A stretch of DNA of 62,087 bases, filler included. It is 4 parts of 4 records of this genome, joined end to end, with 100 filler letters (N's around TTAATTAATTAA, not from the genome) between each part and the next. Parts side by side here need not be neighbours in the genome. Positions count along the whole stretch, not along the records: positions 54,895 to 62,087 come from SRR31156797_4531; 3 more parts are not named here. One strand, given 5' to 3'. A model generated the notes under the pieces. It was not told the DNA's origin. It saw nothing but the letters and a program-made list of their open reading frames with translations, and ran no database searches. A program made the position numbers and the translations under genes. Shown here one piece after another: positions 55,120 to 62,087 of this stretch (the stretch's first letter is position 1; the number at the start of each line of letters is the position of its first letter).

Positions 55120-55911
55120 ATGGACTGGGGAATGAAGAACAGACTAAACAGATTGGTGCAGCCCGATGGACATTGTTTCTTTTTACCGATCGATCATGGT
55201 TATTTTCAGGGCCCGACCCGCAAACTTGAAAAACCGGCTGAAACAATTGCTCCATTAGTACCCTATGCCGACGGCCTGTTCGTAACCAGGGGCGTTCTTC
55301 GCGCCGTAGTCGATCCACAGAATTGCCCTCCGGTAATTCTTCGCGTATCCGGCGGCAGCAGCGTCATCAGTCCGGATCTGGCTCATGAAAGCCTGACCAC
55401 CTCGATAGAAGAGTGCCTGCGCCTTAACGTGGCCGCCGTGGGCATGAGCGTATTTGTCGGCAGCGACTACGAATACGATTCCCTGGTCAATCTCAGCAAG
55501 CTGGTGGACGACTGCCAGAAATACGGCATCCCGGTTATGGCCGTCACCGCCGTGGGCAAGGAACTTGAAAAAAGGACCGCGCGCTACCTATCCTTGTGCT
55601 GTCGGATTGCAGCCGAATTCGGCGCCACCATAGTCAAGACATATTGGTGTGAAGAATTCGACAAGGTCGTGGAAGGATGCCCGGTTCCCGTGGTCATGGC
55701 CGGCGGCCCCAAGGTTGAAACCGAAAAAGAAGCATTCGAATTTGTCCATGATGGAATGCAGAGGGGCGCAATTGGCCTGAACCTCGGCCGTAACGTATGG
55801 CAGCACGAGCATCCGGTGGCCATGATGAAAGCCTTGAGGTCCATAGTTCATGAAAACGCCTCGGTCAATGAAGCCTTGGAGTTATTCGAAGACACCAAAA
55901 ACGCGGGATGA
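55120..55911 (+). CDS. lsrF: LsrF-like class I aldolase/thiolase
   Basis: MDWGMKNRL, DHGYFQGP, IVKTY, MAGGPK, GRNVWQ. Confidence 0.88.
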   Translation: MDWGMKNRLNRLVQPDGHCFFLPIDHGYFQGPTRKLEKPAETIAPLVPYADGLFVTRGVLRAVVDPQNCPPVILRVSGGSSVISPDLAHESLTTSIEECLRLNVAAVGMSVFVGSDYEYDSLVNLSKLVDDCQKYGIPVMAVTAVGKELEKRTARYLSLCCRIAAEFGATIVKTYWCEEFDKVVEGCPVPVVMAGGPKVETEKEAFEFVHDGMQRGAIGLNLGRNVWQHEHPVAMMKALRSIVHENASVNEALELFEDTKNAG

Positions 55912-55917
55912 CCGAAA

Positions 55918-58008
55918 GTGAATAACCTGTTTGACGATGCCGGGGCCGCCGAATTAGCCGCGCGGCTTACCGGCGTACACCGGGATTTGGCCGACCGGGT
56001 CTATACAACCCGCCTGCTTGGCGGGCAAAGCGACCTGGTTCTGCACGGCGGTGGAAACACCTCCGTTAAAATAATGGAAAAAGACATATTCGGCCGTGAA
56101 AGAGACGTTCTCTACGTCAAAGGGTCCGGCCGGAACATGGGCTCAATCAATCCTGAAGATTTTGTCGGACTGGAGCTTGAACCCCTGAGAAAACTCTTTT
56201 CTTTGAATGCCGTTTCCGACCGGGATATGGAAGACCAACTCCATGTCAACAAGGTCCGGCCTCACCCGGCTGTCCCGTCAATCGAAACATTAATTCATGC
56301 ATTTCTGCCCTATAAATTTGTCGACCATACCCACGCCGACAGCATCCTGGTTCTTACAAACCAACCAGACGGCCCCGACTTGATAAAAGAAGTCCTGGGT
56401 CCGGGCGCGGTTGTTCTGCCTTATCTTCGGCCGGGATACCCCCTGGCTGTGGGACTGGCCGATATTTATGAAAAAAATCCTGAAGCGGAAGCGATTGTCG
56501 TCTTGGGGCACGGGATTTTTACATACGGAAACGATGCTGAAACCGCTTATGCAAAAATGATCGATTACGTCAACAGGGCTGAGGAATATCTCGCTGATAA
56601 AGATTTAAAAATAATAGATGATGCTCCCGGTCCGGTTGATGAGGCCCAATTGGCCCGCCTTGCCCAGGTCGTGCGGGGTGTTTGCGCGGTCAGGAGCGAT
56701 GACGGACCGGTTGAGCGCATGCATGTGCAATTCCGATCAGGCCGGGATGTTCTGGCTGCGTCACTGGCCCCTGAAGCAGAAAATATTTGTAGTACCGGCG
56801 TATTAACGCCTGATCATGTTATCCGGACAAAAAACCGCTGGGTATACATCAATGAACTGCCGGAGGAAGACGAGGCCTTAAAAACCCTGGTCAGTAAAGC
56901 AGTTGCCGATTATTCACGGGAATATGATGAATATTATCGGCGTCATGCAGGCTCCCTGGAAGTTGAAGGTCAAAAGCTGGATTCATTGCCGCGAGTTTTT
57001 CTGGTCCGGGGGCTCGGCCTGGTCTGCCTCGGCCGGACCAGAAAAGAAGCCGGCATGGCAGCGGATATTGCCGAGCATACCCTGTCGGCCAAGGTAAGGG
57101 CCCTGGCCATTGGCGGCTACGCACCCATCACGGAAGACCATGTTTTCGAGATGGAATATTGGGGCCTTCAGCAGAGCAAGTTGGGTGTTTCCGGTTCCCT
57201 GCCCCTTCAAGGCCAGGTTGCACTGGTCACTGGAGGAGGCGGGGCCATCGGACTGGGGGTGGCGGATTGCCTCTTAAGAGCCGGCGCGGCCGTCGTTACA
57301 ACGGATATTGACCTTAAACGGCTGGAACAGGTCAGGGAAATTCTCTCCTCAAAATACAGTCCGGACCGAGTCGGCGTAATTAGTTTTGACGTGACCGATT
57401 ACAAGGCCGTTGTTGAGGCTTACAATAAAATAAGCTGTGAATTCGGTGGATTGGATATAATAGTGCCCAATGCCGGAATCGCGCACGTGGCCTCGATTGA
57501 AGACCTGGAACCCGAAAAGCTGGACCAGGTACTGTCCGTGAATCTAAAAGGGACGTTTAACGTTATAAAGGCCTCGGTTCCCGTATTCAAAAGACAGGGC
57601 ACAGGCGGGAATATCGTTATCATCAGCTCTAAAAACGTGTACGATCCAGGCGCCTCATTCGGAGCATACAGCGCCTCAAAGGCGGGCGCCCATCAACTGG
57701 GAAAAATCGCGGCCCTGGAACTGGCGGAATACGGCGTCAGGGTCAACATGATAAACCCGGATGCAGTATTCGGCTGTGGAGATGTTTCTTCAAAACTATG
57801 GGACCTGGTTGGGCCTGACCGTATGCGCAGCCGGGGCCTGGACCCGGAATGCATACAGGATTTTTACTGTCAGAGGAATTTACTAAAAGCCCGTGTATCT
57901 GCCGAACATGTGGGCAATGCCGTGGTCTTTTTCGCCGGGGACCAAACCCCGACTACCGGCGCCACCCTGCCCGTCGATGGTGGAGTCCAGGGAGCGTTTC
58001 CCAGGTAA
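55918..58008 (+). CDS. Bifunctional class II aldolase / short-chain dehydrogenase
   Basis: GGGNTSVK, PSIET..H..HTH, TPDHVIRTK; SDR part TGGGGAIG, NAG, YSASK, NPDAV. Confidence 0.92.
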   Translation: MNNLFDDAGAAELAARLTGVHRDLADRVYTTRLLGGQSDLVLHGGGNTSVKIMEKDIFGRERDVLYVKGSGRNMGSINPEDFVGLELEPLRKLFSLNAVSDRDMEDQLHVNKVRPHPAVPSIETLIHAFLPYKFVDHTHADSILVLTNQPDGPDLIKEVLGPGAVVLPYLRPGYPLAVGLADIYEKNPEAEAIVVLGHGIFTYGNDAETAYAKMIDYVNRAEEYLADKDLKIIDDAPGPVDEAQLARLAQVVRGVCAVRSDDGPVERMHVQFRSGRDVLAASLAPEAENICSTGVLTPDHVIRTKNRWVYINELPEEDEALKTLVSKAVADYSREYDEYYRRHAGSLEVEGQKLDSLPRVFLVRGLGLVCLGRTRKEAGMAADIAEHTLSAKVRALAIGGYAPITEDHVFEMEYWGLQQSKLGVSGSLPLQGQVALVTGGGGAIGLGVADCLLRAGAAVVTTDIDLKRLEQVREILSSKYSPDRVGVISFDVTDYKAVVEAYNKISCEFGGLDIIVPNAGIAHVASIEDLEPEKLDQVLSVNLKGTFNVIKASVPVFKRQGTGGNIVIISSKNVYDPGASFGAYSASKAGAHQLGKIAALELAEYGVRVNMINPDAVFGCGDVSSKLWDLVGPDRMRSRGLDPECIQDFYCQRNLLKARVSAEHVGNAVVFFAGDQTPTTGATLPVDGGVQGAFPR

Positions 58009-58787: not shown

Positions 58788-59981
58788 ATGGCATTAAATA
58801 CAGAAGGTTATATAGAGAGTCGAGGGTTCATCGTAACGGGTGACAACGAAATCGTTGCAACCGCCGAAGAACGTTTCAACACGGATAATGATGCCCCGCA
58901 GGAGCTCAAACAGACTAAAGGCTCCGCTCCTGAAGAAATAATTGCGCCTTACTTCAAGGAAATGAAGCAAATTCCGCTTCTTAACGCCAAACAGGAAAAA
59001 CAGCTGGGTAAGCGAATTAAAGACGCCCAGACCGAACTCCTGAGGCTGGCCCTGGCCGTTAAAACCACTTTCGAACCTTTGCGCGGCTTTCAAAAAATGC
59101 TGCGACAATGGAGAAAGAAAAAGAAAAACTCCCGTGAACCTATTGAATTTATATTCAAAGAACTGGACGACGTTATTGAAGCCATAAAGTTAACGTCGCG
59201 CCCCGGCAAGGATTTGCGGCAGTTTGCGAAAAAAGCGGACGTCCTGAGGCTCGAACTGTCCATCGCCATGAGTGAAATGGTGGAAGCCAACCTCAGGCTT
59301 GCGGTAAGCATTGCCAAAAGATATGCGCGACGCGGCCTGCCCTTGCCCGACCTCATCCAGGAAGGAAACCTGGGTTTGATGAAGGCCGTGGCCAGGTTTG
59401 ATTATACAACAGGAAACCGTTTCTCGACATTTGCCTCCTGGTGGATCAGGCAGACCATATCCCGTGCGCTTTGCGACCAGGGGCGGACTATCAGGGTCCC
59501 TGTCCATTTCCAGGAAATTCGCAACCAGTTTTATCGCTGCTTTTTCGAACTGGTGAAAGAATTCGGGCGTGAACCGACACCCGCGGAAATATCCGACCGG
59601 TCCGGCCTCAGCCTGGAAAAGATCCTGACCATACTACAAGTCAACAGGGAGCCGATTTCTTTAATGACTCCAGTGAGTGAAGATGGCGACTCCCTAGGAG
59701 ACCTTATAGAAAACCACGACGCTGTTTCTCCCCTTGAGGCGGCGGAAGAATCCGAAATGTTGAAATTGACGGAGCAGGCCCTGGCGACCCTGAGCGACAG
59801 GGAACGCCAAATACTGGCCATGCGTTTTGGACTTGGAGACCTGGACCCCTGCACGCTGGAAGAAGTGGGGGCCAGCCTGAATATATCCAGGGAACGCGTC
59901 CGGCAGCTCGAAAAGCGGGCTCTAAACCGACTGCGGCAGTCCCCGGAACGGCAGAAGCTTAAGACGAGTTTCTACGGCTAA
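58788..59981 (+). CDS. RpoD/RpoS-family sigma70 factor lacking region 1.1
   Basis: IPLL (1.2), ANLRLAVSIAKRY, DLIQEGNLGLMKAV, FSTFASWWIRQ, TLEEVG..ISRERVRQLE. Confidence 0.92.
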   Translation: MALNTEGYIESRGFIVTGDNEIVATAEERFNTDNDAPQELKQTKGSAPEEIIAPYFKEMKQIPLLNAKQEKQLGKRIKDAQTELLRLALAVKTTFEPLRGFQKMLRQWRKKKKNSREPIEFIFKELDDVIEAIKLTSRPGKDLRQFAKKADVLRLELSIAMSEMVEANLRLAVSIAKRYARRGLPLPDLIQEGNLGLMKAVARFDYTTGNRFSTFASWWIRQTISRALCDQGRTIRVPVHFQEIRNQFYRCFFELVKEFGREPTPAEISDRSGLSLEKILTILQVNREPISLMTPVSEDGDSLGDLIENHDAVSPLEAAEESEMLKLTEQALATLSDRERQILAMRFGLGDLDPCTLEEVGASLNISRERVRQLEKRALNRLRQSPERQKLKTSFYG

Positions 59982-60288
59982 ATAGCAGTAAGACAGGGCG
60001 AAATCGGGCGCCAATGTGCGCCCGATTTTTTTAGCCGGCATCGTCATCTTATGGAATGCAACTAATCCATATCCAATTTCGGCGCCGGTTCTTGGATGTA
60101 GAAACGCTTCTTCCCCCAACAGCCTCAAATAGCCATATAAATGACATATTAATGTTGCTGGCGCCTGTTTTTTCTTGTACAAATCAAGTTAGGGGCTAAT
60201 GGCTCCTGAATATTTAACGCGGGCTGGTTCAAAGAAATCATGGAACCGCGGAAAAAGGGATAATACTTATCAACCGGGTGTCAACACT

Positions 60289-62087
60289 GTGAAATCAGAT
60301 CAAAATAGTCTTTTAAGCCATATCGGCAATACTCCCCTTGTGGAAATCCGGAGCCTTTCCCCCAATCCTGATGTAAAAATTATGGCCAAACTCGAATATG
60401 CCAACCCTGGAGGCTCCGTCAAGGACAGGGTGGCCAAGGCCATGATCGAAGCAGGCGAAAGAAGCGGCGAACTGACCAGGGATAAGACCGTTATTGAAGC
60501 CACAAGCGGCAACACCGGCATAGGCCTGGCCCTGGTTTCAGCGATCAAGGGCTACCGCCTGGTGCTGGCCATGAGCGAATCCGTCAGCATGGAGCGCCGC
60601 CAGATTCTGACCGCCCTGGGTGCGGAAATCCTGCTGACTCCCGGACACTTGGGCACTGATGGAGCAATAGAGGAAGTCTATAGGCTTGCCAGGGAATATC
60701 CGGATAAATACTTTCTAACGGATCAATATAACAACCCGGCCAATATCGAAGCCCACTATCACGGCACCGGACCCGAAATTTGGGCACAAACCGATGGCGC
60801 CATGGACGTTTTTGTTGCTTCCATTGGCACAACCGGGGCCTTGATGGGCTGCTCCAAACGCCTCAAGGAATATAATCCGAACATAAAAATCGTCGGCGTG
60901 GAACCATATCTCGGCCACAAGATCCAGGGATTGAAAAATCTCAAGGAAGCATACGTGCCGGGCATCTTTGACCGTTCCCGTATCGACGAACTGGTTAATA
61001 TCGATGATGAAGACGCTTTTGAAATGGCCCGTCGCCTGGCCAGGGAAGAAGGGATCTTCGTAGGCATGAGTTCCGGGGCGGCCATGCATATAGCGGTCGA
61101 ACAGGCCCGGCAGTTGGAATCCGGCGTCGTGGTCGTGATCCTGCCCGACGGCGGCGAGCGGTACCTGAGCACAAACCTGTTTGTGCCCAAGGAAAAGACG
61201 TCCCTGAAATTCTACAATGTCCTTTCCAGCGCCAAGGAAGATTTTCTATCCATCAAGTCCGGGAAAGTCGGTATGTATTCCTGCGGCCCCGCGCTTTACG
61301 CACCCCGGCAGGTAGCCACTTATAGACACCTGGTCATGGCCGATCTGCTCAAGCGATACCTTGGTCATCGAGGTTTCGAAGTCCGGCAGGTTTTGAACCT
61401 GGTGGACATGGATGACAGGACCATCAACGCTTCCAACGAAGCAGGAATGGATATAAAAGAATTTACCGAAAAGTACTTTCAGGAATTTCTTGACGACTGT
61501 GACGAACTGAACATAAAACGAGCGGATGTGTACCCCAGGGCCAGTGAAAATGTGAAAGAAATGGTCGCATTGTCACAAAAACTGGCGGAAAAAGGGGCCG
61601 CCTATGAAAAACTACGCTCATTGTATTTCGACATCTCACGCTTCAGGGAATACGGATTGCTGTCCGGCGTGGATCTGTCAAAAATAAGACTGGGAAAAAC
61701 AGTCGACCTGGATGTGTACGAAAAAGAAAATCCCAGGGATTTCACTCTGTTCAAACGCTCAACCCTGGCTGAATTAAAAAAGGGCCTCTATTACAATACC
61801 GAATGGGGGGCTGTTCGCCCGGGCTGGCATATTCAGTGCGCGGCCATCAGCACCAGGCACCTTGGCAATGAATTCGATATTCATACCGGAGGCCGCGACC
61901 TGAACTTTCCACATTACGAAAATGTAAACGCTGTTGGGAATGCCGCATACGGCCATTCACCGGCCAGGTATTGGGTGCACAGCGAACTGGTTCTGGTTAA
62001 CGGCCAAAAAATGTCCCGCTCCCTCGGGAATGCTCCAACAATAAATGATTTGTTAAAACAAGGCTTTTCCGGCCGCACGATTCGATA
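60289..62087 (+). CDS. Cysteine synthase fused to a cysteinyl-tRNA synthetase-like domain (3' partial, absent from ORF track)
   Basis: Stop-free frame: IGNTPL, NPGGSVKDR, EATSGNTG, GTTG, GMSSGA, PDGGERYLS, then LKFYN, YSCGP, PGWHIQC, DIHTGG.DL.FPH, KMSRSLGN. Alternative ATG at 60199. Confidence 0.92.
   Translation, partial: MKSDQNSLLSHIGNTPLVEIRSLSPNPDVKIMAKLEYANPGGSVKDRVAKAMIEAGERSGELTRDKTVIEATSGNTGIGLALVSAIKGYRLVLAMSESVSMERRQILTALGAEILLTPGHLGTDGAIEEVYRLAREYPDKYFLTDQYNNPANIEAHYHGTGPEIWAQTDGAMDVFVASIGTTGALMGCSKRLKEYNPNIKIVGVEPYLGHKIQGLKNLKEAYVPGIFDRSRIDELVNIDDEDAFEMARRLAREEGIFVGMSSGAAMHIAVEQARQLESGVVVVILPDGGERYLSTNLFVPKEKTSLKFYNVLSSAKEDFLSIKSGKVGMYSCGPALYAPRQVATYRHLVMADLLKRYLGHRGFEVRQVLNLVDMDDRTINASNEAGMDIKEFTEKYFQEFLDDCDELNIKRADVYPRASENVKEMVALSQKLAEKGAAYEKLRSLYFDISRFREYGLLSGVDLSKIRLGKTVDLDVYEKENPRDFTLFKRSTLAELKKGLYYNTEWGAVRPGWHIQCAAISTRHLGNEFDIHTGGRDLNFPHYENVNAVGNAAYGHSPARYWVHSELVLVNGQKMSRSLGNAPTINDLLKQGFSGRTIR

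Follow-up and report, generated by a model that had tools for sequence, protein, structure and literature searches.

Modules that derive from aminoacyl-tRNA synthetases and no longer charge tRNA are rare, HisZ, GCN2, MshC and YadB being the cases in point. HisZ, a paralogue of histidyl-tRNA synthetase (HisRS), is the subunit that regulates HisG, and in GCN2 uncharged tRNA is bound by a HisRS-like domain. The present study concerns a gene on the plus strand at the end of a 62,087-nucleotide (nt) stretch of DNA (the window), in which a pyridoxal 5'-phosphate (PLP)-dependent cysteine synthase is fused in frame to a module derived from cysteinyl-tRNA synthetase (CysRS). The window ends before the gene does, and the expected full length of about 771 amino acids (aa) was judged from P0001, a 771-aa protein from an independent assembly which is 99% identical over the part that it has in common with the ORF (open reading frame) of the window. 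As a tentative reading, held at somewhat less than even confidence, the gene would encode a CysE-independent cysteine synthase tethered to a non-charging module that binds tRNA-Cys or cysteine and gates the synthase, and a pathway lacking CysE would thereby come under feedback control.

With HisZ and GCN2 the fusion would share a synthetase-derived module that is without synthetase chemistry and is joined to an enzyme from the corresponding amino-acid pathway or response. It differs from them in synthetase class and family and in having as partner the last enzyme of the pathway, linked covalently. The marks of a pseudo-synthetase, namely a retained fold, lost catalytic signatures and purifying selection, were all found. 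A further comparison is with SepRS, a class II enzyme, and SepCysS, which has a PLP fold different from that of the fusion. In this pair the formation of cysteine is coupled to tRNA-Cys, and where CysE is absent the carbon donor is likely to be O-phosphoserine (PMC5424206). The resemblance would lie in the link between cysteine synthesis and tRNA-Cys and in an O-phosphoserine donor in CysE-less organisms; no tRNA-bound intermediate was seen for the fusion.

MshC and CysRS* are also derived from CysRS, and are the only CysRS paralogues in the table of a 2022 review (PMC9437257). CysRS* comes from the same bacterial order, the Desulfobacterales, where it is without an anticodon-binding domain and lies beside selC*/selB* (PMC5389517). 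Both identities were rejected for the module: the MshC model (TIGR03447) gave 153.6 bits against a cut-off of 485.1, and P0001, unlike CysRS*, has an anticodon-binding domain, with no selB-like neighbour in 13 related loci. Full-text literature searches, which included PMC2922099, PMC5389517, PMC9437257 and PMC5424206, returned neither a description of the fusion nor a functional characterisation of it, although supplementary files, which might list such proteins, were outside their scope; this agrees with the original prediction made from the window, in which no functional characterisation was known.

A single reading frame with two enzyme-derived halves

The original prediction described one stop-free frame of about 600 codons running off the window, and this was borne out: on the plus strand the frame is open at 60199..62085 (629 codons) and is still open at its 3' end where the window stops. 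The fusion ORF was placed at 60289..62087 (599 codons, 3'-open), starting from a GTG at 60289 that coincides with the N-terminus of P0001. An alternative start, ATG 60199 with AGGGG just upstream, would add a candidate N-terminal extension of 30 codons (60199..60288). The open frames of relatives measure 765-855 aa, with outliers of 367, 704 and 929 aa.

Within the 629-aa frame, Pfam matches were obtained to PALP (residues 40-317, E 3.6e-75) and to tRNA-synt_1e (residues 351-629, E 3.4e-77), and a cysteine synthase and a CysRS-derived module are therefore present in one frame, as had been predicted. All of the motifs quoted in that prediction (NPGGSVKDR, TSGNT, GTTG, DGGERYLS, VPKEKTS, and LKFYN from 61204) were found. 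Counted from the GTG, the PLP fold-type II cysteine synthase domain, of the CysK/CysM subfamily, covers residues 10-298 (60316..61182) by profile matches, and the codon of its Schiff-base Lys (K45 in SVKDR) lies at 60421..60423. The linker VPKEKTS follows at 61183..61203, where the junction reads ...DGGERYLSTNLF-VPKEKTS-LKFYN..., and the predicted local distance difference test (pLDDT) score is below 50 for residues 293-300. From 61204 to the window end at 62087, where it is cut at residue 599, the CysRS-derived module was recognised by profile and structure-sequence matches as a Rossmann fold with a connective peptide (CP) domain. The window does not reach the stem-contact, DALR and anticodon-binding parts of the module; the prediction had left the 3' end to be checked for the latter two, and both the DALR and the anticodon-binding domain are present in P0001.

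Contig X2 (2805 nt), which comes from a separate study, spans 60289-62087 with 91 substitutions and zero indels, and for this reason the junction is not an assembly artefact; neither a stop nor a frameshift was present near 61180-61205, where one would have separated the two halves. A further match, X1, was identical, though it may itself be the origin of the DNA studied. If the start codon is disregarded, the 91 nucleotide substitutions alter only 11 amino acids across the 599 codons, six of them in the PLP half and five in the CysRS-like half, which argues for purifying selection on both. The fused architecture is common to 117 full-length homologues, the alignment of which (A1) is the source of all counts out of 117 given below. 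The homologues are thus not always two separate genes, as might have been the case had the fusion been spurious, and the split forms that do exist are nested within the family. The spacing between T295 and N310, across the linker, is 15 residues in 112/117 of these homologues.

Remodelling of the CysRS-derived module

P0001 was aligned with E. coli CysRS (1LI5) and with the best solved relative of the module (8QHP), and CysRS residues are numbered here as in E. coli. Residues 305-769 of P0001 are collinear with the whole of CysRS, DALR and C-terminal anticodon-binding domains included (E 5e-100 to 8QHP and 1e-90 to 1LI5). Many of the ligand-contacting residues of canonical CysRS (E. coli CysS, PDB 1LI5/1U0B; 8QHP) are kept. 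The zinc ligands C28, C209 and H234 are each conserved in 117/117 homologues; in the window the equivalents of the two cysteines are encoded at 61282..61284 and, within GWHIQC, at 61837..61839, and that of H234 within FPHYENVNA at 61906..61932. The equivalents of W205 and H206 are present in 115/117 and 117/117, respectively. Four residues contact the anticodon GCA in 1U0B (PMC13449415), and these too are retained, with R427 in 116, W432 in 97 (Tyr or Phe in a further 19), D436 in 116 and R439 in 117 of the 117 homologues; all four are present in P0001.

The catalytic signatures differ from those of canonical CysRS, as does the attachment of a PLP enzyme. In the window the class I HIGH motif is replaced by QVAT (61309..61320) and KMSKS by KMSRS (62008..62022), the T68 equivalent is Val, and FPHYENVNA carries Tyr in place of H235 and Val in place of E238, the fourth of the zinc ligands. 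Among the 117 homologues, the first His of HIGH is present in 72 and the last in none, the second Lys of KMSKS in two, with Arg in 87, and Glu at the E238 position in 34. The earlier description of this half as a class I CysRS-like catalytic domain therefore holds for its derivation from CysRS and does not hold for a standard catalytic domain.

The modules of 36 fused homologues (loci L135-L164 and six proteins) were also compared with 35 canonical CysRS of the same phylum, which were the top-scoring ones and hence biased toward typical sequences. In the canonical set 142 columns reach 90% conservation or more; in the fused set 61 of these stay at or above that level and 42 fall below 50%. The lost columns cluster round the adenylate site, after CGP, at HIGH, in the KIIK region, at the GGG of DIHGGG, at the GF that precedes KMSKS, and at KMSKS itself. 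Many of these columns hold a new conserved residue, an invariant Arg having become Thr in 35/36, for example, and on that account the CysRS-like half is, by its sequence, remodelled and not decayed. Among the canonical enzymes (n=35), HIGH has its first His and its Gly in 100% and its last His in 97%, and KMSKS has its second Lys in 100%. The subclades of fused modules vary at the same sites, with QVAT, HIGQ, HVGE, DLGL or NIND at the HIGH site and KMSRS, KVDAG or KSTHI at the KMSKS site. A branch with a Shimodaira-Hasegawa-like approximate likelihood ratio test (SH-aLRT) value of 100 separates the fused modules from the canonical ones. Because the motif sites drift among the fused subclades, are 97-100% fixed in the canonical set, and are accompanied in every case by a canonical gene (see below), the CysRS-like half has probably lost efficient tRNA charging.

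In 4/36 fused modules, Asp was observed instead of Cys at the zinc ligand equivalent to C28. The zinc site is thus eroded too in some subclades, though it is invariant in the 117 homologues of A1.

On the NCBIfam cysS equivalog model (TIGR00435, cut-off 340 bits), P0001 scores 387.9, the truncated frame of the window 276.3 and other fused members 148-382, against about 530-605 bits for canonical CysRS of the phylum. Since P0001 passes this cut-off, the family is entered in databases as "cysteine--tRNA ligase", a name which probably does not fit the fusion and which inflates the apparent copy number of cysS.

The cysteine synthase half and the distribution of the fusion

The PLP half passes the cut-off of the NCBIfam cysKM subfamily model (TIGR01136; 376.9 bits against 344.15) and misses those of the cysM (TIGR01138; 369.8 against 394.2) and cysK (TIGR01139; 334.4 against 350.95) equivalogs, and the outcome for P0001 was the same. 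All 117 fused homologues have the Schiff-base Lys, TSGNTG and the Ser of GMSSG; at the third position of GT[TS]G, 82 have T, 33 have S and two have A. With a full-length match, all PLP-site motifs and the passing of the cysKM cut-off, this half resembles the CysK and CysM O-acetylserine sulfhydrylases and CysM in its O-phosphoserine sulfhydrylase form (PDB 2BHS, 2JC3, 2V03, 3DKI). It differs from them in the added C-terminal CysRS-like module of 470 residues, and in the lack of any cysE match in 31/57 of the genomes that carry the fusion, so that O-acetylserine may not be its substrate.

The distribution was surveyed in a sample of 151 genomes of the Thermodesulfobacteriota, the phylum to which G001, a Desulforapulum autotrophicum metagenome-assembled genome (MAG), belongs. 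The fusion was found in 57/151, in one copy each, which agrees with the statement in the original prediction that similar fusions are annotated in sulfate reducers. Both halves are spanned by 55 of the 57 matches, one reaches residue 594 and one is cut by a contig end. Four of the carriers were flagged with one stop; in one of these four, G001, the ORF was seen to be uninterrupted.

A second, canonical cysS, the presence of which had been proposed as a check, accompanies the fusion. Each of the 57 carriers gave two or more cysS-model matches (E<=1e-30), and in 5/5 relatives' genomes viewed in detail a separate cysS gene of 486-539 aa scores 441-580 bits, against 148-382 for the fused module. 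In five genomes with weak best cysS scores, the canonical genes are cut by contig ends. The fusion was not the sole cysS-like gene in any genome checked.

The reverse was observed for cysteine synthase. In 31/57 carriers the fusion is the only match to the cysKM model (E<=1e-80); the match itself was seen to be the fusion in 10/31, and for the rest this follows from the fusion survey of the same genomes. A cysE match (E<=1e-35) was found in 0/31 of these sole-fusion carriers, compared with 25/26 of the carriers that have a stand-alone cysK and 73/94 of the non-carriers; over all carriers, 25/57 have a match and 32/57 do not. Where seen, cysE adjoins the stand-alone cysK. The same pattern was obtained in five further genomes, in which 2/2 sole-fusion carriers are without cysE and 2/3 with a stand-alone cysK have it. 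These counts show that the fused enzyme works in organisms without a recognisable source of O-acetylserine. The absence of cysE from the sole-fusion carriers points to a CysE-independent substrate, for which O-phosphoserine, by analogy with CysM of the Mycobacterium tuberculosis type, would be the most plausible, and the PLP half is likely to be a working cysteine synthase with no need of serine acetyltransferase.

The fusion is thus present in more than one third of the sampled Thermodesulfobacteriota, and is the only recognisable cysteine synthase in about half of its carriers, those without serine acetyltransferase. How cysteine is made and controlled in sulfide-rich anaerobes becomes a testable question.

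Split, archaeal and other linked forms

A stand-alone CysRS-like protein of 468 aa, P0124, which represents a cluster of 58, falls inside the clade with eroded motifs. When 35 of 80 loci were examined for a split form, 12 were split and 23 fused. In 12/12 metagenome loci of the P0124 clade (L165-L176) a PALP gene ends exactly at the fusion junction and has 64-70% identity to the PLP half of the window. The CysRS-like gene begins 0-20 nt after the PALP gene or overlaps it (as ATGA in L166), and in L170 and L172 the halves are separated by one in-frame stop and a short spacer. At the two motif sites the split pairs read H[ILV][GA]L and KMSRS. As judged from its sequences, the split clade is nested within the fusion family, and the gene has been secondarily divided. 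The halves stay linked, as a fusion or as an adjacent gene pair, in the loci examined.

PALP-CysRS fusions of 760-804 aa were also found in DPANN archaea (P0136 and P0286-P0302; the source names are Nanoarchaeota, Nanobdellota and Woesearchaeota). They have the same domain order, 45% identity to P0001 with 8 gaps over 768 residues, and a linker of 14 compared with 15. They differ from the bacterial fusions in that H[IV]GN, KMSKS, T68 and HH[EQ]NE are intact in 18/18 clusters, and in that their CysRS half groups with stand-alone archaeal CysRS. The sequences suggest that the DPANN protein is probably a true bifunctional cysteine synthase/CysRS. The PALP tree sets the archaeal fusions apart from the bacterial ones, the starred branches forcing two changes, but a single clade was not rejected by the approximately unbiased (AU) test (p-AU 0.39), so that the fusion may have arisen once or twice.

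A joined match (7-759) at L058:9989-12276, in a MAG labelled as Patescibacteria, was considered as a split member of the family and rejected, since it consists of a canonical cysK and, 17 nt further on, a canonical cysS with HIGH and KMSKS intact; a tRNA-Pro(CGG) gene lies just upstream. Recurring links of this sort between the two activities argue that cysteine synthesis and CysRS-type proteins work together.

Two other proteins were noted among the CysRS relatives. P0165 (711 aa) joins a hexapeptide-transferase domain, possibly of the CysE kind, to a canonical CysRS with intact HIGH and KMSKS, and groups with canonical Thermodesulfobacteriota CysRS in the tree. P0121 (460 aa) was a candidate stand-alone form and was rejected as a fragment, since its cluster holds a 782-aa member.

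Possible contact between the two halves

An AlphaFold2 model of the full-length proxy, built on A1, had a mean pLDDT of 87.9, with values below 50 in the linker, and a predicted template modelling (pTM) score of 0.60. When the halves were modelled as two chains, the interaction prediction score from aligned errors (ipSAE) was 0.41 (runs of 0.45, 0.41 and 0.38), compared with 0.00 for the best control; the alignment was our own, and the calibration counts hold roughly for it. By those counts, the ipSAE mark was reached by 58/80 solved complexes and 2/110 mismatched pairs, and scores of 0.60 or less were given by only 7 of those 80 complexes and by both of the mismatched pairs that passed. The runs agreed in at least 89% of contacts, and the pLDDT of the partners was at least 86. 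The modelling thus gives a faint indication that the two halves may touch.

Proposed role and alternative explanations

In the proposed mechanism, the PLP half would make cysteine without serine acetyltransferase, probably from O-phosphoserine or another non-acetylated donor. The CysRS-like half would no longer charge tRNA efficiently; it would bind tRNA-Cys, whether aminoacylated or not, and its zinc site might also take up cysteine. When occupied by its ligand it might gate the attached synthase, either through activation by uncharged tRNA or through inhibition by Cys-tRNA or Cys. Such gating would supply the feedback control that is normally given by the CysE-based pathway, with the same logic as the dead HisRS-like modules of HisZ and GCN2, and it would couple the final reaction of cysteine synthesis directly to the state of tRNA-Cys. 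The original prediction had listed product channelling, feedback sensing and chemistry on a tRNA-bound precursor as possible roles; the loss of the class I signatures weakens plain channelling into an active synthetase and favours the sensing or tRNA-linked options.

Several observations weigh against the proposed gating. The loss of aminoacylation is read from motifs, and the nearest intact stand-alone relatives of the module, found in an exhaustive search of representatives, are CysRS with H-I-G-N and an intact KMSKS, so that loss of the last His of HIGH is not in itself diagnostic. The conservation of KMSRS (Arg in 87/117) suggests that this loop is still doing something, and the E. coli CysRS variants K266A and K269A retained protein-synthesis capacity in a cell-free assay (PMC5660078). 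The absence of cysE is the sole ground for O-phosphoserine as the donor. The cysE counts take no account of relatedness among the genomes, come from a set rich in MAGs, and are counts of matches and not of copies. In G155, the nearest genome relative of the window (from L001, 71% identity), the fusion is accompanied by cysE and a stand-alone cysK, and in the organism of the window the fusion is probably an additional route to cysteine rather than the sole one. The window stops short of the 3' third of the gene, and what is said of the anticodon domain rests on P0001 as proxy. Finally, with a pTM of 0.60, AlphaFold2 gave no confident arrangement of the domains or of the two active sites.

Chemistry on the tRNA itself is the alternative that survives best, and is considered unlikely. 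The module would hold tRNA-Cys, or Cys-tRNA-Cys with its thiol on the zinc, and the PLP domain would perform an ATP-independent beta-replacement on the aminoacyl group, with a persulfide, a thioether, or the conversion of a precursor to Cys in the manner of SepCysS as possible outcomes. Such a role would account for the retention of the anticodon readers and the three zinc ligands despite the lost ATP motifs, for an active-site region remodelled to new conserved residues, and for halves that are held at a fixed linker length and stay linked as a fusion or an operon. The Asn loop TSGNTG, however, binds the free alpha-carboxylate in CysK and CysM, and its invariance in the family argues for a free amino acid as substrate and not a tRNA ester. 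The predicted structures offered no confident interdomain geometry, and no enzyme that mis-acylates tRNA-Cys was seen, though none was looked for. From the literature, it is in favour of this chemistry that the cysE-less carriers resemble users of O-phosphoserine, the substrate of SepRS/SepCysS (PMC5424206), and that CysRS can also act, as a side activity, as a PLP-dependent persulfide synthase (PMC5660078). The PLP-binding lysines of CysRS, on the other hand, are mostly Arg or variable in the module (K73 in 32/117, K269 in 2/117), and a CARS-type persulfide synthase site in the CysRS-like half was rejected on these counts. Were the thiol chemistry real, the fusion would be a bacterial counterpart of SepCysS made from different parts.

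A broader reading, which we regard as distinctly unlikely, takes the module as a receptor for tRNA-Cys or Cys-tRNA-Cys that makes the PLP enzyme dependent on tRNA, whether as the first bacterial metabolic enzyme in which a pseudo-synthetase domain lets a single specific tRNA act as the switch, or through ATP-independent thiol chemistry on a tRNA-bound residue. In that event the cysE-less Thermodesulfobacteriota would have a sole, tRNA-coupled route to cysteine.

It is improbable that the protein is still bifunctional, with a module that charges tRNA-Cys by way of unusual signatures and a fusion that channels fresh cysteine into aminoacylation, as the archaeal fusions probably do. P0001 does score above the cysS cut-off, H[IV]GN and KMSKS are kept by all of the DPANN fusions, a canonical cysK-cysS pair occurs in the Patescibacteria-labelled MAG, and some fused subclades have HLGN and KMSRS, which is near to active enzymes of the HIGN type. 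The K269A variant of E. coli CysRS, with its retained capacity for translation, points the same way (PMC5660078). Against these stand the variation of the HIGH and KMSKS sites between subclades, which are nearly or wholly fixed in canonical enzymes, the loss of 42 of the 142 canonically conserved columns, and a higher-scoring canonical cysS in every carrier checked; moreover, in the clade of the window HIGH is without its Gly and either His, and the T68 equivalent and E238 are gone as well.

A CysRS-like half in which tRNA plays no part, and which is only a cysteine- or zinc-binding or oligomerisation scaffold that might serve for product inhibition or as a thiol buffer, is very improbable, since it leaves the conserved anticodon readers unexplained and HisZ, the classical amino-acid sensor among such paralogues, has no anticodon-binding domain, although the (nearly) invariant equivalents of C28, C209, H234 and W205/H206 would suit it, as would the fact that cysteine feedback normally acts on CysE, which 32/57 carriers are without.

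For the proposed gating of the synthase by a non-charging module, as for its alternatives, a natural series is at hand that can serve as controls, comprising a canonical gene pair, an intact archaeal fusion, an eroded bacterial fusion and a secondarily split pair.

Gene neighbourhood

No other cysS- or cysK-like stretch and no tRNA gene were found within the window. In the leader (59982-60288), no Rfam family was matched at threshold (one Hrs13 match had 20.8 bits against a gathering score of 52) and no promoter-like or terminator-like site was found. Across 13 fused loci, which are flanked by housekeeping genes (tmk, RNase J, ftsK, lptD), no neighbour was conserved beyond close relatives, and no tRNA gene other than those for Arg or Pro was present. 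In two of these 13 loci the fusion gene is followed, some 75 nt further downstream, by a tRNA-Arg(TCT) gene (L004:8347-8423 and L006:2523-2599).

The neighbours of the fusion in the window are a sigma-70 factor and ilvBN. The sigma-70 family factor (397 aa, regions 1.2, 2, 3 and 4) is encoded directly upstream on the plus strand at 58788-59981, about 300 nt before the GTG at 60289. An ORF of 696 aa with class II aldolase and short-chain dehydrogenase domains was observed at 55918-58008 on the plus strand, beside a DeoC/LacD-family aldolase gene at 55120-55911.

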